A DNA stretch of 34,660 nt from Acidimicrobiia bacterium (GCA_020027305.1 JAHRAM010000026.1:1-34660); one strand, 5' to 3'; shown: positions 1,788 through 21,340, counted from the stretch's first letter. A program made the numbers and translations. Notes: a model not told the origin generated them from the letters alone.

Positions 1788-2240
1788 ATGCTACCAACAC
1801 CTGAAGAGGTCATTCCACACCGACCTCCGTTTTTATTTTTAGATGAGGTTGTAGAAATTTCCTTGGATGAACCAGTTGGCGGAAAAGGCATTTGGACACC
1901 ATCAAGCAGTGCTGAGTTTTTTTCAGGGCATTTTCCTAATCGTCCAACCCTTCCTGGAGTATTGATGGTAGAAGCCATTGCACAGCTAGGTGCTTATGTT
2001 TTGCTTTCGAATAAAGAATACGTTGGGTTGTTGCCACTTTTTGGAGGCATTGACAAAGCCCGTTTTAGACGACAAGTTTTGCCCGACACTAAATTAGAGC
2101 TTGAGATTGAGCTGTTGAGCCTATCAAAGCGGGCGGGCAAAGGGCAGGGCAGAGTTCTTGTTGAAGGGAATGAAGATCCCAAAAAAAGAATTGCCTGTGA
2201 GGCAAATTTGATGTTTGTGCTTGTGCCAGCCGAACAATAA
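1788..2240 (+). CDS. fabZ: 3-hydroxyacyl-ACP dehydratase FabZ
   Basis: 150-aa ORF with hot-dog fold FabZ motifs: IPHRPPFLFLDEV near the N-terminus and the active-site region GHFPNRPTLPGVLMVEAIAQLG. Confidence 0.85.
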   Translation: MLPTPEEVIPHRPPFLFLDEVVEISLDEPVGGKGIWTPSSSAEFFSGHFPNRPTLPGVLMVEAIAQLGAYVLLSNKEYVGLLPLFGGIDKARFRRQVLPDTKLELEIELLSLSKRAGKGQGRVLVEGNEDPKKRIACEANLMFVLVPAEQ

Positions 2241-2309
2241 AGAGTCAAAGATAAGTTGAAGGCTGTAAGTCTAAGCAAGAATTAAAATTAGGTTAGCTTG
2301 ATTTAAAAA

Positions 2310-3491
2310 TCACGCTGGCCCAAAAATCACGCTGGCGTTGTGCCCGCCAAAGCCAAAGGAGTTTGAGATTATTGGCCCTGGTTCCCAATCCTGTGGCTCT
2401 TTTTGAACGATGTTTATTTCAGGAAGATCTGGGTCTCTTTCTTCAAACCCAAATGTAGGTGGCAACTGTTTATTTTGAATGGAAAGAATAGATGCCACAG
2501 CCTCAAGTGAGCCAGAGGCTCCTAAGGCGTGCCCTGTTATGCCTTTGATAGACGTTGCAGGCGGGTTGTCTTGCCCGAAAACTTTTGCAATTGCTTCAGC
2601 TTCACAGGCGTCATTTAGGGGAGTTGAAGTTCCATGAGCGTTGATATGCTTTATTTCATCAGGCTTCATATTTGCACTTTCTAAGGCCAGTTCCATACAG
2701 GCAGCTGCGCCTACACCTTGAGGTGATGGGGCAGTGATGTGGTGAGCGTCTTCATTTGTGCCGTATCCATGAATTTCGCCAAGGATTTTTGCACCGCGTG
2801 CCTCAGCGTGAGAAAGCTCTTCCAAAATCAAAATTCCACATCCCTCAGATTGAAGGAAGCCATCTCGGCGCTTGTCAAATGGGCGAGATATTCCCTCACG
2901 TGAAGTAGCAGTCATGTTTATGAACGCTTGAATACCAAGTGAGGTATTAGAGGCTTCAGCTGAGCCAGCCACCATTGCATCAGCTCGCCCGCCCAAAATA
3001 GCAAGATAGGCATTACCAATTGATTGAGTACCAGTTGTACAAGCGGTGGTTGTGGTTTCACAAGGGCCTTGAAATCCATAACGGATTGAAATAGCAGCAG
3101 CAGCAGCATTTGGCATCATCATTGGAATTAAAAATGGGCTAACTCGGCGGGGGCCTTTTTCTCTGAAAACCTCTGCTTGGATTTCAATTGACTCCAATCC
3201 TCCCACGCCTGTTCCAACATGTACCCCAATACGTGCAGGATTAGATTTTAGGAAGCTTTCCCCAGCTTGGTCTAAAGCCTGAGTGACGGTAGCTAAAGCA
3301 AATTGTGCAAAGCGATCTTGACGCCTTGCTTCTTTAGGGGTGTCAAAGAATGGTTCGGGGTCAAAATTTCGTATCTGGCGGTCTGGGCTATCTGGCGCGG
3401 AATGGCAAAGCGCCTCCCAAAACTCATCTTGTGAAAGCCCACAATTTGCAATAACCCCCATCCCTGTGACAACAACACGCCGATTATCCAT
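2310..3491 (-). CDS. fabF: beta-ketoacyl-ACP synthase II
   Basis: 393-aa ORF with KAS motifs: the active-site Cys context TTTACTTGTQSIG, HITAP, NAHGTSTPLND and the C-terminal SNSFGFGGHNASVIF. It lies directly downstream of acpP. Confidence 0.93.
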   Translation of the reverse strand: MDNRRVVVTGMGVIANCGLSQDEFWEALCHSAPDSPDRQIRNFDPEPFFDTPKEARRQDRFAQFALATVTQALDQAGESFLKSNPARIGVHVGTGVGGLESIEIQAEVFREKGPRRVSPFLIPMMMPNAAAAAISIRYGFQGPCETTTTACTTGTQSIGNAYLAILGGRADAMVAGSAEASNTSLGIQAFINMTATSREGISRPFDKRRDGFLQSEGCGILILEELSHAEARGAKILGEIHGYGTNEDAHHITAPSPQGVGAAACMELALESANMKPDEIKHINAHGTSTPLNDACEAEAIAKVFGQDNPPATSIKGITGHALGASGSLEAVASILSIQNKQLPPTFGFEERDPDLPEINIVQKEPQDWEPGPIISNSFGFGGHNASVIFGPA

Positions 3492-3622
3492 GTTGTTTGT
3501 CGCACATATTATTATCAGGCTTATTATTGCGCTCGCCTTTTTTGTGGGAGCCTATTACAATCAATTTAGTTAGCTTGTTTGGATGAAGTGGTAACAATAG
3601 TTGCCTTAAATTTTAAGTTGAT

Positions 3623-3859
3623 TTAAAGTTTTGATTTGATAAGGTCAAATGCTGCTCCCACAGTTGTGACATTTTCAAGCTCGCTCTCTTCAACTTTTAT
3701 GTCAAACTCATCTTCCATTGCCATAACAACTTCAACTAGGTCAAGGCTGTCAGCATTCAAATCATCTTCAAACTTTGCCTCAAGGGTGATTTGATCGGGC
3801 TCTACTGAAAGAACTTCAGCGGTAAGTTCTTGAAACTTTGTGAAATGTTCATTGCTCAT
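3623..3859 (-). CDS. acpP: acyl carrier protein
   Basis: 78-aa acidic ORF with the phosphopantetheine attachment motif LNADSLDLVEVVMAMEDEF. SD aaggagatt lies upstream of the ATG on the minus strand. Confidence 0.93.
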   Translation of the reverse strand: MSNEHFTKFQELTAEVLSVEPDQITLEAKFEDDLNADSLDLVEVVMAMEDEFDIKVEESELENVTTVGAAFDLIKSKL

Positions 3860-3919
3860 TTTAATCTCCTTATTTATTTTTCGGTCCGTTTAGTTTGATA
3901 TTAATTTTAGCATTTTCTT

Positions 3920-4654
3920 TTAAGCGCCCATGCTAGCTCCGCCATCTACGGGGATTATTGCACCTGTAATATAGGCAGCCTCTTTGCTGGCAAGAAAGTT
4001 AACTAGGTGAGCAACTTCGTCTGGGCTTCCGAGCCGATTGAGTGGGACAATACTTAATATGTCTTCTATTTGTTTGTCGTTTAAGGCTGCCAGCATGTCG
4101 GTGCTGATTGGCCCTGGCGTCACCACATTAACCGTGATGGAACGAGAGGCAAATTCTTTTGCCAACGAGCGAGCCATCCCAAAAATGCCAGCTTTAGAAG
4201 CAGCATAGTTGGCTTGCCCAGCAGCACCACCAAGACCGACAACTGAAGAGATAAAAATAATCCGCCCAGCTTTTGCCCGTGACATGTTTTTTAGCGCACG
4301 GCGAGCTACACGAAAGCCGCCGGTAAGGTTCACATTTAATATGTCTTGAAAGTTTTCATCAGACATTCTAAGTGAAAGCCCATCAGCAGCCATTCCAGCG
4401 TTTGAAACCAGCACGGTTGGTGCGCCAAGATTTTGTTCAATGTCATCAAAAGCTGCTTCTACCTCATCGGTATTTGAAACATCGCATTTCACACTATATA
4501 GTTCTGAGTTCTCAGGTGGCGCCGAACGATAAGTGATTGCAACTTTATGCCCGCTGGCAAGCAGTGTCTCAGCACAAGCTAATCCAATTCCACGATTTCC
4601 ACCAGTTACGAGCGCGACTTTGTCTACGGTTTTATCAGGGCTATCGTTGGGCAT
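3920..4654 (-). CDS. fabG: 3-oxoacyl-ACP reductase (MabA/FabG1-like SDR)
   Basis: 244-aa ORF with VTGGNRGIGLA, NAG, the YAASKAG catalytic motif and the C-terminal PVDGG. From memory it is co-linear with mycobacterial MabA. Confidence 0.9.
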   Translation of the reverse strand: MPNDSPDKTVDKVALVTGGNRGIGLACAETLLASGHKVAITYRSAPPENSELYSVKCDVSNTDEVEAAFDDIEQNLGAPTVLVSNAGMAADGLSLRMSDENFQDILNVNLTGGFRVARRALKNMSRAKAGRIIFISSVVGLGGAAGQANYAASKAGIFGMARSLAKEFASRSITVNVVTPGPISTDMLAALNDKQIEDILSIVPLNRLGSPDEVAHLVNFLASKEAAYITGAIIPVDGGASMGA

Positions 4655-4690
4655 CTATTTATTTATCTAGCAACAGTGTTTGATAGGTGT

Positions 4691-5623
4691 TTAAGGTGTG
4701 TAGCCCCAGCGAAGCAAGGCACTTGCTGCTGACATTCCAGCTCCAAAGCCAACCGTCAAAACAATATCGCCTTTTTTAAGGCGTCCTTTGTCTAGGGCGT
4801 GTGCCATTGTTAGTGGAATGGATGCAGTTGAGACATTTCCTGTCCAAGCAATTGTTTCAACGACTTTTTCTGGGTCAATTCCCAAGCGGTCGGTGGCTGC
4901 AGAAATGATTCGAGTGTTTGCTTGGTGGGGAATCATCACAGATACATCATCAATTGTCATGCCAGCTTTTTTAAGTGTGGCGTTAGAGGATTCCACGATG
5001 ATTTGAACAGCTTGGCGAAAGACTTCCTTGCCTTCCATATAGATGTATCCGCCGATTTCACAATTTAATATTGGTTCTAAGCTACCATCAGTTGAAAGTG
5101 TATAGCTCAGCAGTTCACTTTCATCGGGGGTTGCCTCAAGCACGACTGCTCCTGCTCCATCCCCAAACAAAACAGCTGTTGAGCGGTCAGACATATCAGT
5201 TATTTTTGATAGCTGTTCAGTGCCGATTAGCAAAACTTTTTCATCATCTGAGCGGATTAGCCCACCTGCTAAGACCATTCCATAAACAAACCCAGCACAT
5301 GCTGCGTTCACGTCAAAGGCTCCACCAGTGAACCCAAGCTCATTTGAAATGCGAGCAGCGGTTCCAGGCAAACTTCTATGGGGGCTAGAAGTGGCAAGTA
5401 CCATCGTGTCGATTTGTGAGGGGTGAAGTGATGCTTTTTCTAAGGCTTCACGAGCAGCATCTCTGCCGAGTTCCCAGACAGATGACCCGATGCGTCTTTC
5501 TTTAATTCCTGTTCTCGCAGTAATCCACTCATCTGAGGTATCAAGAGTTTTTGCGAAGTCATCATTTGTGACGACTTTTTCAGGAAGGGCAGTTCCGAGC
5601 CCAGTTATGTGAAAGCCTTTCAT
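4691..5623 (-). CDS. fabH: beta-ketoacyl-ACP synthase III
   Basis: 310-aa ORF with TSDEWITARTGIKERR, the active-site NAACAGF, HQAN and GFGAG motifs. SD aaggagaaaat lies upstream. Confidence 0.93.
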   Translation of the reverse strand: MKGFHITGLGTALPEKVVTNDDFAKTLDTSDEWITARTGIKERRIGSSVWELGRDAAREALEKASLHPSQIDTMVLATSSPHRSLPGTAARISNELGFTGGAFDVNAACAGFVYGMVLAGGLIRSDDEKVLLIGTEQLSKITDMSDRSTAVLFGDGAGAVVLEATPDESELLSYTLSTDGSLEPILNCEIGGYIYMEGKEVFRQAVQIIVESSNATLKKAGMTIDDVSVMIPHQANTRIISAATDRLGIDPEKVVETIAWTGNVSTASIPLTMAHALDKGRLKKGDIVLTVGFGAGMSAASALLRWGYTP

Positions 5624-5640
5624 ATTTTCTCCTTAATTAA

Positions 5641-6879
5641 TTAGTCTAGCGGTTGGGTTTGAAGCCATACTAATGGTTGATTAGCTTCAACGCGTTCATC
5701 GGCTGTGGCTAAATAGCCCATTATTGTGCCAGAAAAAGGCGACTTGACTTCGTCATCTGACACGGTGCCGATAGTTTCACCAGTTTTAATCCTGCTTCCT
5801 AGTTCTAAATCGGGTTCGGGGGTGAATACCCCTGCTCGTGGGCTGACCACAATTCGTTCGGTGGCATAGAGGTGCTCACCTTGATCTTCTGTTAATGTGG
5901 TACTTTTGGTTGTGGTGCTACTGCTTACCGTTTTTTTTGACTCGCTTCGTGTGTCTAGAGTAGCAAGTAGCTTGTCAATATCGTCAGGATGATTGACAGC
6001 TAGCAGGTTAAAATTTGCTCCTTCCACTCGTTTTGCCATAGCAGTGAGTGCCTTTCCTGCCCCCAGTTCAACGATTTGGGTGACGCCGTCATCAAGCATT
6101 TGTTTGAGGATGGAATGCCAAAGCACTGGGCTGGTGAGTTGTTTTGAGATTAGTTCTGAAAATGGATTTGCATGGTCATAGAGCTTGGCGTCAACATTGG
6201 CATAGATAGGGGAGTCGGGATTTCTAAAATCAATTTTGTCAAGAGCTTTTGCGAGTCGCTCGCCAGCTGATTCCATAAAGGGAGTGTGAAATGCCCCGCC
6301 AACTTTTAGGGGCATAGTCTTTTTGGCGCCCGCCTTGCTGGCTTGTTCGCTGGCTTCATCAATTCCAGTTTGGCTACCGGCAATTACTACTTGACCAGGA
6401 GCGTTATAGTTGGCGACCCAAACTTGATTTTTGGTGCCTGTGCGAATGTTCTCACACACCTCTTCTACAGTTTTATCGTCTAGACCCAGCACGGCAGCCA
6501 TAGTTCCTGGGTTTTCTTCAGATGCCATTTGCATTGCCTCGCCTCGTTCAGCAACCAACTGAGAAGCATCTGTTAGGCTGAGAACTCCAGAAGCAGCAAG
6601 TGCAGAAAATTCCCCGAGGCTGTGGCCAGCATGGCAATTTGGGGCAAGCCCCACCCTAGCAATGGCATCCATCACCACCATAGACAGTGAAAAAGAGGCG
6701 AGTTGAGAGTTTCTAGTTTGCCGAAGCTCTTCAGCATCAGCAGTCAATAGAAGGTGAGCGACATCACGGTTGGTAGCTTCACTGATTTCGGTTATTGTCT
6801 CCCATGCAGGGTGGCTAGCCCAAGCTACACCCATCTCAGGTGCCTGAGACCCTTGCCCAGGATAAGTAAATGCAATCAA
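5641..6879 (-). CDS. fabD: malonyl-CoA:ACP transacylase fused to a C-terminal lipoyl/biotinyl-like domain
   Basis: 412-aa ORF with a TTG start and a gaggag SD upstream. Residues 1-305 are typical FabD (FTYPGQGSQ, GHSLGEFSALAASG, VGGAFHTP). A Ser/Thr-rich linker (aa 311-337) follows, then about 75 aa resembling a barrel-sandwich hybrid domain (see findings). Confidence 0.9.
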   Translation of the reverse strand: MIAFTYPGQGSQAPEMGVAWASHPAWETITEISEATNRDVAHLLLTADAEELRQTRNSQLASFSLSMVVMDAIARVGLAPNCHAGHSLGEFSALAASGVLSLTDASQLVAERGEAMQMASEENPGTMAAVLGLDDKTVEEVCENIRTGTKNQVWVANYNAPGQVVIAGSQTGIDEASEQASKAGAKKTMPLKVGGAFHTPFMESAGERLAKALDKIDFRNPDSPIYANVDAKLYDHANPFSELISKQLTSPVLWHSILKQMLDDGVTQIVELGAGKALTAMAKRVEGANFNLLAVNHPDDIDKLLATLDTRSESKKTVSSSTTTKSTTLTEDQGEHLYATERIVVSPRAGVFTPEPDLELGSRIKTGETIGTVSDDEVKSPFSGTIMGYLATADERVEANQPLVWLQTQPLD

Positions 6880-7058
6880 TTCCCAGCTCCTCTCTCTGGT
6901 TAGATTAATTAAATTGGTTAACTAAAATTATTTGGTCAAAAACGAAGTAGCAGAACTATATTTGTTATATAAAAATAGTAAGACACTCACATATATTTTA
7001 GACTAAATTTTACTAGCATCGCTAGTTTTTGTAAAACGAGTGATTTTACTTACAATTT

Positions 7059-7141
7059 GCCCGGGTGGCGGAATTGGTAGACGCGGAGGACTCAAACTCC
7101 TCTGGCTTTTAGCTGTGCGGGTTCGAGTCCCGCCCCGGGCA
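7059..7141 (+). tRNA. tRNA-Leu (anticodon CAA), type II with long variable arm
   Basis: Manual fold. Acceptor gcccggg/cccgggc with discriminator A. Anticodon stem gagga/tcctc with loop ctCAAac. Variable arm ggc-tttta-gct. T-arm gcggg-ttcgagt-cccgc. CCA is not encoded. Confidence 0.93.
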
Positions 7142-7215
7142 CACTTATGTGTTAAACATATTTCAAGCTATCTCTTTCAAATCTTGTCGGTGGTGAGATG
7201 TAGGCTTAGAGATAG

Positions 7216-9954
7216 ATGCCAAAAGAAACGAGCTCAAAAGAAGTTGAGTTAGACCCAAAGTTGCCGACCTTGCTGTTGTTTGACGGGCATTCAATGGCAC
7301 ATCGTGCTTTTCATGGAACCCGTCCGCTCAGCACTGCTTCGGGGCAGCTGACGAATATGTTGGTGGGGTTTTTAAATTCCTTCTTTCGGATTTATCGCGA
7401 CTATAGCCCAACTAAAACTGCTGTGTGCTTTGACCTACCTGAGCCAACATTTCGTCACAAGCAATTCAAAGAATACAAAGCTAACCGCGACAAACCACCC
7501 GATGAGTTTATCGAACAACTTGGGTTGCTCCACGAAATCTTAGGTGCTCTTGGCATTCCAGTTGTTGAGCGAGGGGGATTTGAGGCTGATGACCTGCTGG
7601 CAACGTTGGCACATCAAGGGCGAAAAAACAAAAACAATGTGGTTGTGGTTACTGGCGACCGTGATTGTTTTCAGCTGGTTGCTGACCCCTTTATAAAAAT
7701 TCTCTACACTCCAAGTCAAGGTTCACCAAAATTGCTAGACGACGCAGGTGTAAAAGAAAAGATGGGCGTAAAGCCCGAAGTCTATATTCAATATGCTGCC
7801 ATGAAAGGCGATACCTCAGACAATCTGCCAGGGGTTGCTGGAGTGGGTGAAAAAACTGCAGTTGCCCTCATTCAAACTTATGGCAATATCAAAGGAATAT
7901 ATGAGGCGCTCGAAAAAGAGCTCAAGCAAGAAAAACCTTCCAAAGATTCGCCGCTAAAACCGAGGGTGAAAGAGTCGCTTTCAAACAGCCGTGACATCAT
8001 TGATAGAAATCTTGAACTAATGAAGCTGAAAACCGATGTGGAACTCAAGGTGAAATATTCTGAGCTAGCAAAAGGGGAGTTTAAGCAAACTGAAGTAGAC
8101 AGACTTTTCAATCTTTTAGAGCTCAAAAAATTTGACAAAGATTTGGCGACAATATTTTCACACACAATAGAGCAAGCAACTGAATTTGAATCAGTGGAAA
8201 GTGGGATTGAAGAAGCTGACATGGCAGACCTGCTTTCAAAAATCCAAGAAGCTAAGAAAATTCTCCAAGTATCAGTAGCTGGCAATTGGACAAACGAATT
8301 TGAAGGATTTTCGCTCGGGCTTTTAGATAAAGGAAAATGCAAAGCTACGTGGATACCTTCTAGTGCAATTAAACAAAACAAAAAAGCTCTAAAAGCAGTA
8401 TTTGAAAAAGCAAACGCCCAAATAATCGCACATGACATAAAGCCACTGGTGCTTGAAATACTCCACTATGGAATAAATATTCCAAACCTCCACTTTGACA
8501 CACGGATTGCTGCCTACTTGATCGACCCACAAGACAGACGAACCACCCTTACAGATTTGGCACAAAAATTTGGTGGCGTTTCCCTTAAAGACAATGAAAG
8601 CGGAGATTCTGCCAAAACCGCACAACTGGAATTGCAAGAAGTTGACCCTAAAGGCGATTCCCAACTTGAAGTCGCTGCTCTTCTTAAAATCTACAGCCCT
8701 TTAAGGCAAGAGCTTTCAAAGCTACAGGAGCTTTCACTCTATGAAAGTATGGAGCTTCCGCTTGTAAAGGTACTTGCCAAAATGGAACACTTCGGGATTG
8801 CAGTTGATGAGGCTGAACTCAAATCTCTGAAAGCCAAACTTGAAACTGAAGCGTCCCAACACAAAAAAGCAGTTCTAAAAGCAGCTGGTAAAGAGTTCAA
8901 TGTGAACTCTACGAAAGAATTGGCACAAGTTTTGTTTGAAGATTTGAAACTGCCACCCCAGAAAAAAACAAAGACAGGATATTCAACTGATGCTGGCACG
9001 CTTGAAAAACTAGCTGGCAAACATGAAATCATTGAACATCTTTCCAATTATCGAAGTGCTGAAAAACTTCGTTCAACCTATGGTGAGGGATTGCTAAAAG
9101 AAATTGCACCAGATGGAAGGATACATGCAACCTTCAACCAAACCGTAGCTCGCACAGGCAGGTTAAGTTCAGATGCACCGAACTTGCACAACATTCCTAT
9201 TCGCACTGAGCAAGGAAGGGAATTTCGCAAAGTCTTTATCGCAACACGCGGGCATGAATTGCTTGTTGCAGACTATAACCAGATTGAGCTCAGATGTGTG
9301 GCACATTTAAGCGGCGACCCTAATCTCATTGAGGCATTTAAGACTGGTGAAGACATTCATTCCAGCGTGGCAGCTCGAGTTTTTGGAGAGATCCCTGTTC
9401 CCAAAGCTCGGCGCGAGCAAGCAAAAATGATTTCCTATGGGCTAATGTATGGAATGGAAGCGTTTGGTTTAGGCCAGCGTTTAAACATTCCTCAATCAGA
9501 AGCTGGTGAAATCTTAAAGAGTTTTTTTGATGCCTATCCCAGCATTCGCAAATACATGGATAAAACGGTAGAGACCACCAAAAAACTTGGATACACAGAA
9601 ACCCTGTTTGGGCGGAGGCGGTATATCCCTGAGCTTACTTCTGGCAATCCCCAAGTTAGGGCAGCAGCTACTCGCCAAGCAATGAACTCTGGCATTCAAG
9701 GGCTGGCTGCTGACATATTCAAATATGCCCTTATCAAAATTAACAACAAGCTGGAAGAAAAAAATCTAGAGAGCCGGCTGGTGCTTCAAGTTCACGATGA
9801 GGTGATTTTAGAAGTTCCAACTGGGAAGGCAAACAATGAAAAAGAGGTAGCTAAAAATATTGTGGTTACAGAGATGGAAGGAGCTACTCAATTAGATGTT
9901 CCACTTGTTGTTGAAGTGACTTCTGGGAAAACTTGGGCAGATGCAAAAGGCTAA
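7216..9954 (+). CDS. polA: DNA polymerase I
   Basis: 912-aa ORF. It has an N-terminal 5' nuclease (LLLFDGHSMAHRAFH, GDRDCFQL, SDNLPGVAGVGEKTA). Polymerase motifs are ADYNQIELR, RREQAKMISYGLMYG and LQVHDEVILE. By eye the Exo I DxE position reads VAG, so the 3'-5' exonuclease domain is probably inactive, as in other actinobacterial PolA (inference). Confidence 0.97.
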   Translation: MPKETSSKEVELDPKLPTLLLFDGHSMAHRAFHGTRPLSTASGQLTNMLVGFLNSFFRIYRDYSPTKTAVCFDLPEPTFRHKQFKEYKANRDKPPDEFIEQLGLLHEILGALGIPVVERGGFEADDLLATLAHQGRKNKNNVVVVTGDRDCFQLVADPFIKILYTPSQGSPKLLDDAGVKEKMGVKPEVYIQYAAMKGDTSDNLPGVAGVGEKTAVALIQTYGNIKGIYEALEKELKQEKPSKDSPLKPRVKESLSNSRDIIDRNLELMKLKTDVELKVKYSELAKGEFKQTEVDRLFNLLELKKFDKDLATIFSHTIEQATEFESVESGIEEADMADLLSKIQEAKKILQVSVAGNWTNEFEGFSLGLLDKGKCKATWIPSSAIKQNKKALKAVFEKANAQIIAHDIKPLVLEILHYGINIPNLHFDTRIAAYLIDPQDRRTTLTDLAQKFGGVSLKDNESGDSAKTAQLELQEVDPKGDSQLEVAALLKIYSPLRQELSKLQELSLYESMELPLVKVLAKMEHFGIAVDEAELKSLKAKLETEASQHKKAVLKAAGKEFNVNSTKELAQVLFEDLKLPPQKKTKTGYSTDAGTLEKLAGKHEIIEHLSNYRSAEKLRSTYGEGLLKEIAPDGRIHATFNQTVARTGRLSSDAPNLHNIPIRTEQGREFRKVFIATRGHELLVADYNQIELRCVAHLSGDPNLIEAFKTGEDIHSSVAARVFGEIPVPKARREQAKMISYGLMYGMEAFGLGQRLNIPQSEAGEILKSFFDAYPSIRKYMDKTVETTKKLGYTETLFGRRRYIPELTSGNPQVRAAATRQAMNSGIQGLAADIFKYALIKINNKLEEKNLESRLVLQVHDEVILEVPTGKANNEKEVAKNIVVTEMEGATQLDVPLVVEVTSGKTWADAKG

Positions 9955-16843: not shown

Positions 16844-18220
16844 GTGCGCATAATAGTAGTGGGAGTCGGCGAAGTCGGATCTCATATAGCCGAGTCTCTG
16901 AGCGCTGATGGCGTAGACATTGTCGTTATTGAAAAAGATCAAAACCGACTAGATGAGCTATCAAAGCGACTAGACATTCTGGCAGTACGTGGAAATGCTC
17001 TAAACCACAATGTTTTGGCAAATGCTGGAGTTGCTTCAGCATTCATGTTGGTTGCAGTCACAGATAGAGATGAAGTAAATATGATGGCGTGTCTTCTGGC
17101 AGCTCAAGCGGGGGTGAAGCACCGAATCGTGCGGATTGAAAATGACTACCTACAAGACAAAAAGTCAAAGGAGCTGCGCAAGGCAATGAAGATTGGAAAG
17201 GTTATTGACCCTGACCGAACTACCGTAGATGAAATTATGCAGTTGCTCACATATCCAGGTGTAGCAGAAATTGATGAGATGGCAAATGGTGCATTGTTAA
17301 TGACAGGAGCCCAGCTAACAGAAGATAGCCCTCTTGCAAATCGAAAGTTAGCAGATATTGCCAAAGACAATGAGCCAGAGTGGGGTTTTATGGTAGGAGC
17401 AATATCTAGAGGTGAAGAAACGCTCATTCCAAGAGATACCGAGCTAATACTTTTGCCAGGCGATACGGTTAGGGTAATCGTAAAAAAGGAAGCTCTTAAA
17501 GAAATGCTCCACCAACTAGGTGCTCCTGACATCCGCCTCAAAAATATTATGGTATTGGGCGGTGGAAGAATTGGAGAAATGACTGCTGCTCGACTAGAAA
17601 GCGAAGGGCGACATGTGAAATTGATTGACCTAGACCCTGAACGCGCAACCGAGCTTTCAGAAGCTCACAACAACATTGATATCATTCAAGGTGATATCGC
17701 AAATTCTGACTTGTTAGATTCAGAGGGAATAAAACGTATGGATGCCGTGGTTGCAGTTTCTGGCAGAGACGAAAGCAATATCTTGGCATGTCTCTATGCT
17801 CAGTCAAAAGGTGTGGGAGAAATTATTTCTATCCTTCATAAGGCTGAACTAAAAAATATGTTTGCAAGATTCGGGTTAGAAAAAACCTTATCGCCGATTA
17901 CTGCCAGCATTGAATCAGTTCTTGAAATCGTTCGCTCTGAAAAAATTAAAACTACCGTTCAAAAAGTAACGAGCTTTCTAGCAATGGATATTGAGGTGCT
18001 TGAAATAACTGTTATGGCGGGAAGCCGTGCAGACGGCAAGAAGGTTTGTGAGCTTGGGCCGTCTAAAAAGATTTTGATTGGAGCAGTTGTTAACAATGAG
18101 GGAGTAAAAATAGTAAGGGGCAACACCAGCCTCCGTGCTGGTGACAAGTTGGTGGTTTTTGCTCGCCCCAATGCCCTAGGCAAGGTGTCAGAGCTATTTG
18201 AGACAAAACATAAAGACTAA
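16844..18220 (+). CDS. trkA: Trk system K+ uptake protein TrkA (tandem RCK/KTN domains)
   Basis: 458-aa ORF with a GTG start. Two NAD-binding repeats are present (IIVVGVGEVGSHIA and IMVLGGGRIGEMTA), each followed by a TrkA-C-like segment. Confidence 0.9.
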   Translation: MRIIVVGVGEVGSHIAESLSADGVDIVVIEKDQNRLDELSKRLDILAVRGNALNHNVLANAGVASAFMLVAVTDRDEVNMMACLLAAQAGVKHRIVRIENDYLQDKKSKELRKAMKIGKVIDPDRTTVDEIMQLLTYPGVAEIDEMANGALLMTGAQLTEDSPLANRKLADIAKDNEPEWGFMVGAISRGEETLIPRDTELILLPGDTVRVIVKKEALKEMLHQLGAPDIRLKNIMVLGGGRIGEMTAARLESEGRHVKLIDLDPERATELSEAHNNIDIIQGDIANSDLLDSEGIKRMDAVVAVSGRDESNILACLYAQSKGVGEIISILHKAELKNMFARFGLEKTLSPITASIESVLEIVRSEKIKTTVQKVTSFLAMDIEVLEITVMAGSRADGKKVCELGPSKKILIGAVVNNEGVKIVRGNTSLRAGDKLVVFARPNALGKVSELFETKHKD

Positions 18221-19760
18221 TATCTTAGGGCTGTTTGTGTCCTTAATCGGGGCAGGCTTAGTGCTTGCCTTGTCTGGCTTGATAGGCATGGCAACCAATG
18301 AAGCTGAAACTTTTGAGCAGCTCCATCTCACCTATGGCGTGATGTGTGTTTTGTCTGGCTTAATCGGGGCAGCATTTTTTGCCCGTAAAACTGTGGTAGA
18401 ACCAAAATCAATTTTGTCAGCTGCGCTTATTGCTATAGGAACGTTCTTGGGGGTTATATATTTCGCATTTTGGATAACTGGAAAATTTGGAAGCCTAGAC
18501 GATGTTTTGTTAGAAGCAGTTTCTGCCATCACTACCACCAACCTGAGCTTGGTGAACAACCCACAAGAATTAGGGCAAGGGCTGTTATTTTTGCGAGCAG
18601 CTACTCAGTGGGTGGGCGGTCTTGGGGCAATATGTTTTTTCTCAATACTCTTACCCGTTTTTACTAGAGGAAGAGAAAATGCCAACAATCCCCTCAAAGC
18701 TGTGCTTAGTATTTATTTTGCAGTTACTGCTATTTTGATTGTCGCATTTGTTCTTGCAAAGATGAGTTGGTTTGATGCCATTACTCATAGCTTTACTACC
18801 ATTTCAACTGGCGGATTTTCAAATTACACAAACGGGCTTTCACATTTCAATTCAGCATCTGTGGAATGGATAGCGGTGGCGGGAATGTTTGTTGGTGGAA
18901 TACGACCAGTGCTTTTGTGGTGGGGGCTTCGCCGTTCGCCTGTTGTTTTGTGGCGCTCACTAGAAATGCGCATTTATGTATTGGTGGTTCTTTCTGTCAG
19001 CCTCATACTTTTTTTAAGCGATGGAGATGGCTTGCGTCGTAGTTTCTTTAGCGTGACTTCTGCAATTTCTGGCACTGGATTTTTCTTAGAGAACTGGGCG
19101 GGCTTTGGATTTGGGCTACAAATTTTAGTGTTAGTGTTGATTGCCACAGGAACAATGTCTGGAACTGCAGCAGGCGGATTTGGGTTGACCCGCGCCACAG
19201 AATCTGTTCAGTATATATATCGTGAGCTTTATACACAGCTTCACCCAAAGGCAGTGTTTAAGGTGAAAATGGGTAGCGATGTGTTAAACGAATCTGGGCT
19301 TTCTCAAACCCAGTCATTTCAGTTTTTCTATTTAGGGGCACTTATTGTCGGAACTTTTGCACTTGCACAATCGGGGGCAGACCTTGTTTCAGCTATTGGC
19401 GGAACCATAACAGCATTTGCATCAATGGGTCCAAGCATAGGTGAATTCTTTTCTGATTCAGCTAGCTTGGCAGAACTCCCACGCCCAGCAAGAGCAGTGC
19501 TTTCTGTGATGATGCTAGTTGGCAGGGTTTCAATATTTCCAATAATGATTTTGCTATTTGCTTTTGTTGAGCGACTAAGTTTTTTTCGTTTTTCAAAGGT
19601 TCGCTCACGAATGCAATTCCTCAACAAATTGGGTGCTAAGAAATTGTTTAACAAAAAATCACAAGACGATAATTCTGTGCCGACGACAATTTCTCAGTTT
19701 GAAAATGAGACCACGACCAAGACCACCAAAAATAACATCTCAAAAGAAATTAAAGGTTAA
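18198..19760 (+). CDS. trkH: TrkH/KtrB family cation transporter, paralog 1
   Basis: 520-aa polytopic ORF with selectivity-filter-like TTN / STGGFS / SGTG / SMGPSIG segments. The TTG start overlaps trkA by 23 nt, and an in-frame ATG at 18288 is an alternative. It has a hydrophilic C-terminal tail. Confidence 0.8.
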   Translation: MRQNIKTNILGLFVSLIGAGLVLALSGLIGMATNEAETFEQLHLTYGVMCVLSGLIGAAFFARKTVVEPKSILSAALIAIGTFLGVIYFAFWITGKFGSLDDVLLEAVSAITTTNLSLVNNPQELGQGLLFLRAATQWVGGLGAICFFSILLPVFTRGRENANNPLKAVLSIYFAVTAILIVAFVLAKMSWFDAITHSFTTISTGGFSNYTNGLSHFNSASVEWIAVAGMFVGGIRPVLLWWGLRRSPVVLWRSLEMRIYVLVVLSVSLILFLSDGDGLRRSFFSVTSAISGTGFFLENWAGFGFGLQILVLVLIATGTMSGTAAGGFGLTRATESVQYIYRELYTQLHPKAVFKVKMGSDVLNESGLSQTQSFQFFYLGALIVGTFALAQSGADLVSAIGGTITAFASMGPSIGEFFSDSASLAELPRPARAVLSVMMLVGRVSIFPIMILLFAFVERLSFFRFSKVRSRMQFLNKLGAKKLFNKKSQDDNSVPTTISQFENETTTKTTKNNISKEIKG

Positions 19761-19771
19761 AGTAAAAACTC

Positions 19772-21340
19772 ATGCCAAGCACTAAACAACTACACATACG
19801 ACTAGTTGGCCCAGCCATAAGAAAAAACAGCACCACCGTTCATATGGTTGGCGCGGGGCTCTTGCTTATTTCCCCCGGCATTCTTATCGCAGGTTTAGTT
19901 GAATTACTTTCTTCTAATTCCCCAGATGCCCTTGGGCTTTTTGTCACCGCACTAATTACAGCAGGTATCGGCTATCTGTTTTGGCAAACCACTGCTATCA
20001 AAGGCACGCCCGACTCTCTATCTATTTTTTCAGCGGTGGCATGGACATGGATAATGTGTTCTCTGCTGGGATCACTTCCATATATTTTGTCTAGCCAAAT
20101 GGGCGGATGGGGAAGTTGGGATAGCGCATTGTTTGAATCCATTTCAGGGTTCAGCTGCACAGGCTCTTCAGTTCTGCCAGATATTGAATCACTTGGAAAA
20201 GGAATGCTGCTCTGGCGACAAATGACCCAGTGGTATGGTGGAATGGGAATGGTGGTTCTGGCTGTTAGTGTATTGCCTTATGTTGGAGTCGGTGGGTTGG
20301 CACTTGTAACAGCAGAAGCTCCTGGCCCATCTACCGAACGGTTAGTGCCTCGAGTTAGAGAAACTGCCAAGCGGTTATGGACGCTCTATGTGGGGATTAC
20401 GGTTTTAATCACAGTTGTTTTATTTGCAGTTCCAGGGCCAGGGCTTTATGACTCAATCGCTCATGCTCTTTCAACGGCATCAACTGGTGGCTTTTCTGTT
20501 TTCAACCAATCTATAGGGCACTATAACTCTATTGCCGTTGAGCTAATCATTGCTTTTTTCTTGGTGGTGTGTGCCTTAAGTTTTAACCTCCACTATCAAG
20601 TGCTCTTTTCAAAAGTCTCAAAGGGGTTTTTAAGCCGTATTGGCAGGTTGAAAAAATATTTTGAAAGCAAAGACCAAGCGTTCTTCATCAAAATTTTTGT
20701 TGGGACAACCATAGTCGTTTCTCTATTGGCGTGGAATTCTGCTCTCTTTACATCTTTCTGGAATGCCCTTAGGCATTCTGTTTTCAATGTAGCAACGTTA
20801 ATTTCTAGTGGGGGCTTTTCAAATGCCAGAGGGGTCGGCAGTGCTGGCGATTTTTCTCTTTGGGCACCAAGCCTTCAAATTATTTTATTGGTGCTAATGG
20901 TTATGGGGGGTTGTGTTGGGTCAACTGCTGGCGGGTTAAAGAGCTACCGAGTTTATATCGCTGCTGGACATATTAAAAACAATCTCAAAAAGACACTTCA
21001 CCCAAACCTAGTTCGACAAGTTCGCTTGGGCAAAGTCACTGTGCCAGAAGAAATCGTTCGCCGAGTTCTAGGGTTTATCACTTTGTTCGTGGTGATATTG
21101 TTGGTGGGAACACTGGTGCTTGCTAGTTTAGGAAATAATTTGCCAACTGCTTTTAGTGGGGCAGTAAGCGCCATGAGCAATATGGGCCCTGCTTTAGGAG
21201 ATGCTGGCCCAGCTGAAAATTTCCTTGCGTTTTCGCGGCCAGCAAGGGGAGTGCTAATGGCATTGATGTTAATAGGCAGGCTTGAAATTATGGCTGTGCT
21301 GTTTATGTTTCTAGACCCACTGCGCGCACTAAGGCGATAA
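19772..21340 (+). CDS. trkH: TrkH/KtrB family cation transporter, paralog 2
   Basis: 522-aa polytopic ORF with SGFSCTGSS, MTQWYGGMGMVVL, STASTGGFS, SSGGFS and SNMGPALGD motifs typical of TrkH. Confidence 0.85.
   Translation: MPSTKQLHIRLVGPAIRKNSTTVHMVGAGLLLISPGILIAGLVELLSSNSPDALGLFVTALITAGIGYLFWQTTAIKGTPDSLSIFSAVAWTWIMCSLLGSLPYILSSQMGGWGSWDSALFESISGFSCTGSSVLPDIESLGKGMLLWRQMTQWYGGMGMVVLAVSVLPYVGVGGLALVTAEAPGPSTERLVPRVRETAKRLWTLYVGITVLITVVLFAVPGPGLYDSIAHALSTASTGGFSVFNQSIGHYNSIAVELIIAFFLVVCALSFNLHYQVLFSKVSKGFLSRIGRLKKYFESKDQAFFIKIFVGTTIVVSLLAWNSALFTSFWNALRHSVFNVATLISSGGFSNARGVGSAGDFSLWAPSLQIILLVLMVMGGCVGSTAGGLKSYRVYIAAGHIKNNLKKTLHPNLVRQVRLGKVTVPEEIVRRVLGFITLFVVILLVGTLVLASLGNNLPTAFSGAVSAMSNMGPALGDAGPAENFLAFSRPARGVLMALMLIGRLEIMAVLFMFLDPLRALRR

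Follow-up and report, generated by a model that had tools for sequence, protein, structure and literature searches.

A lysine-less biotinyl-type domain fused to FabD or encoded between fabD and fabH in Acidimicrobiia and other Actinomycetota

The fatty-acid synthesis operon carried on a 34,660-nt stretch of the genome of a marine Acidimicrobiia bacterium (GCA_020027305.1, JAHRAM010000026.1:1-34660; the whole stretch is referred to here as the window) begins with a gene, fabD~X, whose product joins the malonyl-CoA:acyl carrier protein (ACP) transacylase FabD to a C-terminal domain, here termed X. This domain is almost certainly a conserved, non-carrier relative of the biotin carboxyl carrier protein (BCCP) in which the cofactor-bearing lysine is missing. 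The X family is encoded beside the first two enzymes of fatty-acid synthesis and is therefore probably a non-catalytic helper; with a probability of roughly 0.4, we read X as a non-catalytic interaction module of the initiation step of FabD and FabH, the latter a 3-ketoacyl-ACP synthase III (KAS III), and most probably as a module that couples the one enzyme to the other.

Domain X occupies amino acids 334-412 of the fusion protein (79 aa; window positions 5644..5880, minus strand), and its assignment as an all-beta barrel-sandwich hybrid of the biotinyl type draws on structure prediction, two structure searches, and a family profile. The AlphaFold2 (AF2) model of X, built from a 68-row alignment, had a predicted local distance difference test (pLDDT) score of 93.8 and a predicted TM-score (pTM) of 0.81. 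In Foldseek, 42 chains matched this model at E ≤ 0.001, including 5gua (E 3e-6, TM 0.76/0.83, rmsd 1.4) and 1bdo (E 5.6e-6), and a VIA-align search of 48,161 representative chains, run independently of Foldseek, returned 1bdo as the best match (Z 11.4, 70 residues, rmsd 2.5, 29% identity). These similarities are far beyond chance and BCCP was the best match of both searches, which bears out the biotinyl/lipoyl-type fold that the first-pass annotation had proposed for the extension from sequence alone. The profile check suggested there gave a divided answer: the Pfam model Biotin_lipoyl (PF00364) does match X (E 0.0018), but at 18.5-19.4 bits the match falls below the gathering score of 22.1. 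Across the family, the same model matches at E ≤ 0.01 in only 14 of 68 members.

The feature that sets X apart is the hairpin between strands beta4 and beta5. A phmmer search of PDB sequences placed E. coli BCCP at the top (E 0.004), with a four-residue gap exactly over the AMKM of BCCP, and the hhalign alignment of the X family profile to the BCCP of the same genome (probability 52.6%, E 1.4e-4) had a four-column gap over EAMK. Because both BCCP alignments put a four-residue gap over E-A-M-K, the hairpin has been shortened and the cofactor lysine deleted, as had been read from the sequence; in the window protein the tip consists of S374-D375-D376-E377 (5749..5760, minus strand), where BCCP has E-A-M-K-M. 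Orthologs with the same extension, which the first-pass annotation had proposed to search for a retained lysine, proved common (46 of 82 loci carry the fusion), and among 192 distinct members 0-1% have a lysine at each of the hairpin columns 41-45 of the family alignment. Elsewhere in the domain, at least 80% of these members share each of the residues E8, R9, P14, G17, F19, G34, G38, S47, F49, G51, E62, R63, Q68, P69, and W72. The hairpin tip itself is not a conserved functional site under constraint, because two members carry insertions there: the same-family relative L011 (1498-2700, minus strand) has a 13-aa Thr/Gly/Ala-rich insertion, STGTVTGTAATSAAH, exactly in the tip, and P0143 has one of 4 aa.

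Neither biotin nor lipoate can be attached to X at the canonical position. The genome also encodes ordinary carriers, an AccA-type protein that combines biotin carboxylase (BC) with a BCCP domain bearing VLEAMKMEN and an E2 protein bearing EISTDKV, and X is therefore not the biotin or lipoyl carrier of the cell. The earlier expectation that the domain is unmodified at the canonical position and does not act as a cofactor carrier agrees with these sequences and models. It is very improbable that X still bears biotin, lipoate, or some other group on a different residue, such as K379 in EVKSPF. The window copy does have a lysine one strand-position past the hairpin, but that column is Arg in 59% and Lys in only 1% of the 192 members, no A-M-K-M or D-K-A motif is present, and the genome is already supplied with an ordinary BCCP and lipoyl domains.

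Compared with the biotinyl domain of BCCP/AccB (PF00364; 1bdo, 2d5d, and 5gua), X shares the eight-stranded barrel-sandwich hybrid (Z 11.4, TM 0.76, 25-30% identity) and keeps the SP..G motifs that follow strands 1 and 5. Unlike BCCP, it has a hairpin shorter by four residues and without Met-Lys-Met, alignment gaps in place of the thumb of E. coli BCCP, a Pfam score below the gathering threshold, and an attachment to, or a gene beside, FabD rather than a carboxylase. Of four features that mark a cofactor-carrying Biotin_lipoyl domain, X thus has the fold and lacks the other three, namely a profile score above threshold, the hairpin lysine, and a carboxylase, 2-oxoacid dehydrogenase, or glycine cleavage context. 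The nearest functional analogy is the plant BADC (biotin attachment domain-containing) proteins, which are described as BCCP homologues without the biotinyl lysine that inhibit plastid ACCase. By this description, X and BADC are alike in being BCCP-derived, lysine-less, non-catalytic, and tied to fatty-acid synthesis, but BADC proteins are full-length BCCP paralogues of plants that join the BC-BCCP subcomplex, whereas X is a bare 75-aa domain of Actinomycetota found at FabD/FabH. X also resembles the C-terminal domains of AstE/AspA-family hydrolases (3cdx, 2qj8, 8ein CphZ, and 6twm EutE), which are lysine-less hybrid beta domains at the C-terminus of an enzyme (Z 9.0-10.1). Those domains are rigidly packed on the catalytic domain, whereas X follows a disordered linker and also occurs as a separate gene, and the identity is 9-23%.

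Two further matches touch on the fold. The top NCBIfam match of X (aa 338-391) was to positions 161-212 of TIGR03309 (E 2.7e-7, 30 bits), the model for YqeB, a selenium-dependent molybdenum hydroxylase system protein, and YqeB may by this sequence match hold a related lysine-less hybrid domain. A metagenomic protein of 111 aa, P0102, combines the N-terminal half of a true lipoyl domain (EVSTEKVDTEVPAPASGVL) with the C-terminal half of X (EVRSAFAGVLQSY, QPIAWLRTV), which reflects either a chimeric assembly or natural recombination between the two domain types.

The part of the protein that precedes X is FabD, as the first-pass annotation had recognized. Residues 1-318, including the terminal helix 299-317 (5926..6879, minus strand), match Pfam Acyl_transf_1 (PF00698) with 121.2 bits over aa 4-282 (cut-off 32.7) and TIGR00128 with 259.9 bits, 1 bit below the equivalog cut-off of 260.9. 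The GHSLGE serine (S87), R112, H198, and Q9 of the N-terminal GQGSQ, which we take from E. coli FabD to be the catalytic serine, the malonyl-carboxylate-binding arginine, the histidine, and the N-terminal motif, are invariant or nearly so across 38 fused homologues. Judged by these profiles and residues, this portion is an ordinary, catalytically complete FabD. It resembles the canonical single-domain FabD (TIGR00128), for which the E. coli, S. coelicolor, and M. tuberculosis enzymes are examples, both in residues 1-318 and in the fabD-fabH-fabG-acpP-fabF operon, but the canonical enzyme ends after the terminal helix and the window protein continues into a linker and X.

The full-length AF2 model (mean pLDDT 93.2, pTM 0.78) has pLDDT >90 through residue 310, the helix at 299-317, disorder at 319-333, and then the all-beta domain. 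The Ser/Thr-rich character and the flexibility previously attributed to the linker (aa 319-333; 5881..5925, minus strand) fit its pLDDT of <50. The full-length pTM is low for its pLDDT, which is a weak hint that X has no fixed orientation relative to FabD. Among the 38 fused homologues, the FabD-to-X linker is 8-58 aa long and variable in composition, with 28 aa in the window protein, and in its length, variability, and disorder it resembles the tethers of swinging-arm domains.

The gene context of X was examined in 82 X-bearing loci through profile searches for FabD, FabH, FabG, ACP, and FabF; the loci include close kin that are not independent, and the counts are descriptive. X is either fused to FabD or a free-standing gene of ~90 aa. 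A FabD~X fusion followed by fabH was found in 36/82 loci and separate fabD-X-fabH genes in 29/82. The remainder comprise fusions followed by fabG, without fabH (7/82), free X genes with no fabD upstream and a KAS III-type gene downstream (5/82), and X with neither neighbor, whether fused (3/82) or free (2/82). A FabD-type acyltransferase is therefore fused to or located directly before X in 75/82 loci (46 fused and 29 separate), and a KAS III-type gene directly follows X in 70/82; X would in nearly all cases share its transcript with a KAS III gene. The spacing can be very tight: in L041 and L042 the free X frame shares ~10 nt with the end of fabD and 1-4 nt with the start of fabH. In three loci (L064, L068, and L096) X stays with fabH with no fabD preceding it, fabD being divergent in L068. 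In a maximum-likelihood tree of 67 FabD cores, three changes of the fused/separate label are needed, the same number is forced by well-supported branches, and bootstrapping gives 3-4 (5-95% range). Both states are present within the order, and fusion or fission between FabD and X has occurred at least three times.

Several loci depart from the common layout and are recorded here as observations in their own right. In one genus of the coded family f49, an X paralogue directly precedes the gene for a type III polyketide synthase (PKS; Chal_sti_synt N- and C-terminal domains) with no acyltransferase nearby (L079, 2654-2917 followed by 2863-4044, plus strand; L099, 3047-3307 followed by 1944-3203, minus strand). 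Acyltransferase (AT)~X fusions also occur outside the primary fatty-acid synthesis operon: in L098 (629-6301, plus strand) within a cluster of ketosynthase, AT~X, AMP-binding ligase, ACP, and enoyl/keto-reductase, and in L095 (3057-5547, minus strand) adjoining a class I/II aminotransferase and near a tryptophan-halogenase-like gene. Genome G035 has a second fatty-acid synthesis operon, fabD-X-fabH-acpP-fabF without fabG, in which a carboxyltransferase (CT) homologue follows fabF (L093, 4476-6299, plus strand), recalling the M. tuberculosis layout fabD-acpM-kasA-kasB-accD6. In the fabD-X-fabH-fabG-acpP-fabF region of genome G007 (L102, 1-4220, minus strand), the FabH, FabG, and FabF matches are split over several frames, reflecting either many frameshifts in a poor assembly or a decaying operon.

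The family is sizable and, by its pattern of conservation, under strong purifying selection. A profile of four close homologues, searched against 1.84 billion representative proteins, matched 422 at E ≤ 1e-3 and 116 at E ≤ 1e-10. With 116 clusters at the latter cut-off, a free-standing form, and at least three fusions or splits, the suggestion that X is the remnant of a fused carrier is not supported. Searches of the Pfam and NCBIfam libraries found no model that covers the family, and a protein-cluster search with X returned only unannotated or Biotin_lipoyl-type actinobacterial clusters. The match to 310 longer proteins at E ≤ 1e-8 includes, among the matches listed, 120 proteins from Acidimicrobiia, Ilumatobacteraceae, or Actinomycetota metagenome-assembled genomes (MAGs), all 120 of which carry only PF00698 in precomputed Pfam annotation, under the plain name ACP S-malonyltransferase. 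One source also labels free-standing copies of 84-89 aa as S-malonyltransferase. The FabD~X architecture is unannotated rather than rare. Among PMC open-access papers and bioRxiv preprints, a scope that leaves subscription papers outside, no description was found of a biotinyl-like domain linked to FabD or to fabD/fabH, and X belongs to a family that is undescribed within that literature.

The nearest named loci belong to Acidimicrobiales MAGs and single-cell genomes, e.g., MedAcidi-G2B and AG-410. Across the genome of the window, its family, and its order, X was matched at E ≤ 0.01 in 36 of 41 genomes, and all four same-family genomes carry the fusion. A wider sample of 301 Actinomycetota genomes (≥85% complete, plus G000 at 83%) contained 85 with a match at E ≤ 1e-5. 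A stricter cut-off of E ≤ 1e-8 was adopted because one of the weakest matches checked, L081, is a canonical BCCP (EAMKME, beside BC and CT genes), and matches weaker than ~1e-8 were set aside as ordinary biotinyl domains. At this cut-off X is present in 67/301 genomes: 15/16 in the order Acidimicrobiales, 0/7 in the other orders of the class, and 52 elsewhere in the phylum. The last group includes nine genomes flagged as unpublished (G186, G159, G272, G211, G058, G041, G260, G127, and G121), none of which is used in the locus analyses. Matches in the phylum are concentrated in the coded families f44 (16/21), f49 (16/17), and f51 (8/9). A Legionellales hit (L022) was discarded, as the match spans only 14 residues.

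For the role of X, we propose that a BCCP-type biotin-carrier domain permanently lost its cofactor-bearing hairpin and may now serve as a non-catalytic protein-interaction module at the start of type II fatty-acid synthesis. X is attached to FabD through the flexible linker in the genome of the window and is free-standing in other lineages. X would hold or position FabD near another component of initiation, most probably FabH, and the malonyl-ACP made by FabD could then be used locally. The proposal draws on the fold without its lysine, the strong conservation, the Rosetta-stone pattern of fused and split FabD and X, the link to KAS III, and the swinging-arm-like tether; the existence and the identity of a protein partner are what we infer. 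Prediction of a complex between FabD residues 1-318, a FabH monomer, and X, each with its own alignment, gave an ipSAE of 0.00 in two runs, without controls, which has no bearing on binding either way. Several observations weigh against a coupling to FabH. The seven fused loci of the MedAcidi-type clade (L014-L016 and L018-L021) have fabG rather than fabH after fabD~X, the four genomes of this clade that were searched encode FabH at another place, and the AT~X fusions L095, L097, and L098 have no KAS III within 3 kb. G025, a genome of the same order that is 99% complete, has a plain fabD-fabG-acpP-fabF operon, an unlinked FabH, and no X; because it has FabH without X, FabH can function without this domain in some relatives. 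The loci also include kin, so their counts overstate the number of independent observations. Finally, every fusion joins X to the acyltransferase and none joins it to FabH, and a role centered on FabD fits at least as well.

A bolder form of the proposal, in which X is a dedicated scaffold subunit of the dissociated (type II) fatty-acid synthase, joining FabD to FabH or, in secondary-metabolite clusters, to a type III PKS, is doubtful and clearly less probable than the interaction module itself. A little less probable again is that X mimics BCCP and docks on the BC or CT site of acyl-CoA carboxylase (ACC), which would either place FabD at the source of malonyl-CoA or damp the carboxylase as BADC does. 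The structures and sequences nearest to X are biotinyl domains of ACC, malonyl-CoA serves as substrate both for FabD and for the type III PKS encoded beside X paralogues, the operon of L093 ends with a carboxyltransferase gene, and BADC proteins are described as BCCP homologues that lack the biotin-attachment site and inhibit ACC. Against this, FabH, the commonest neighbor of X, does not use malonyl-CoA, and BCCP reaches into the BC and CT active sites with a hairpin that in X is truncated and tolerates the 13-aa insertion. The scan of 98 loci and their fetched flanks (508 kb) found BC or CT genes near a single X-bearing locus, L093, the other match being the canonical BCCP locus L081. Docking to the carboxylase, which the first-pass annotation had offered as an example, is thus not favored by gene context. 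A free X and an X tethered to FabD would moreover affect the carboxylase differently, and the mimic is a less parsimonious account of a domain that exists in both forms.

The remaining explanations draw on the same evidence. X could act on FabD alone, in cis or as a tightly bound subunit, serving as a lid or stabilizing domain of the kind found in AstE/AspA-type hydrolases; this we consider unlikely, more so than docking on ACC. The fusions do lie always at the C-terminus of a FabD-type acyltransferase (46/82 loci, at least three origins), AT~X is kept where fabH is unlinked and in PKS-like clusters, and the structural neighbors include the C-terminal domains of CphZ, aspartoacylase-family proteins, and EutE (Z 9.6-10.1). 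A fixed lid fits poorly with a linker that is long, variable, and disordered, the modest full-length pTM of 0.78 despite a pLDDT of 93.2 is weak evidence for the absence of a fixed domain orientation, and X occurs without an adjacent acyltransferase in 7/82 loci. Slightly less credible still is the recruitment by X of holo- or malonyl-ACP, raising its local concentration for FabD and FabH. ACP is the sole molecule common to both enzymes, acpP lies in the same operon, and the family arginines R9, R46 (59%), R63, and R74 (75%) could face the acidic ACP, but the window copy has K at R46 and Q at R74, its X domain counts 13 Asp/Glu against 6 Lys/Arg, and the pairs E8/R9 and E62/R63 may be mere structural salt bridges. 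An artifact, in which a frameshift or mis-assembly has joined two genes, would agree with the existence of the domain as a separate gene in other lineages, but the chance of it is negligible. The fusion runs in one open frame in 46/82 loci from many genomes and assemblies, including all four of the same family, and positions 5600-6100 of the window contain no frame break and no tandem repeats that would account for the long Ser/Thr linker; the refutation by assembly error that the first-pass annotation had allowed for did not materialize.

Should a scaffold role of X prove correct, Acidimicrobiia and several other lineages of Actinomycetota would have recycled a biotin-carrier fold into a defined 'initiation module'. 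The enzymes of type II fatty-acid synthesis are usually pictured as freely diffusing, and in a group of Actinomycetota that is large and abundant in sea and soil X would act as an unrecognized organizer or regulator at the first committed steps of lipid synthesis, paralleling in bacteria the re-use of a dead biotin carrier by plant BADC. X is invisible to present annotation, and a family model would correct hundreds of records.

The gene fabD~X spans 5641..6879 on the minus strand, with 412 codons read from a TTG start at 6879 and a stop codon at 5641-5643; the segment 5644-5949 that was singled out initially corresponds to aa 311-412, i.e., the linker and the C-terminal domain. The N-terminus of the product, LIAFTYPGQGSQ, aligns with MIAFTYPGQGSQ in relatives, and the TTG is, from this alignment, the start that fits the family. 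The public record of the protein (P0002) is a 397-aa form that starts at the internal Met16 and is without the conserved N-terminal MIAFTYPGQGSQ (6835-6879, minus strand). The gene is the first of a type II fatty-acid synthesis operon on the minus strand in the order fabD~X-fabH-fabG-acpP-fabF, with polA located upstream and divergent. The KAS III gene fabH (4691..5623; Pfam ACP_syn_III and ACP_syn_III_C) begins 17 nt downstream of fabD~X and is followed by the 3-oxoacyl-ACP reductase gene fabG (3920..4654; adh_short_C2), the acyl carrier protein gene acpP (3623..3859; PP-binding), and the 3-ketoacyl-ACP synthase II gene fabF (2310..3491; ketoacyl-synt N- and C-terminal domains), the start of which, MDNRRVVVTGMG, was checked. 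A promoter and terminator scan of 2200-7300 returned nothing above shuffled expectation. Elsewhere in the window, at 16844-21340 on the plus strand, trkA, with two TrkA-N/TrkA-C pairs, precedes a tandem of two TrkH-family genes, of which the first matches far more weakly than the second.

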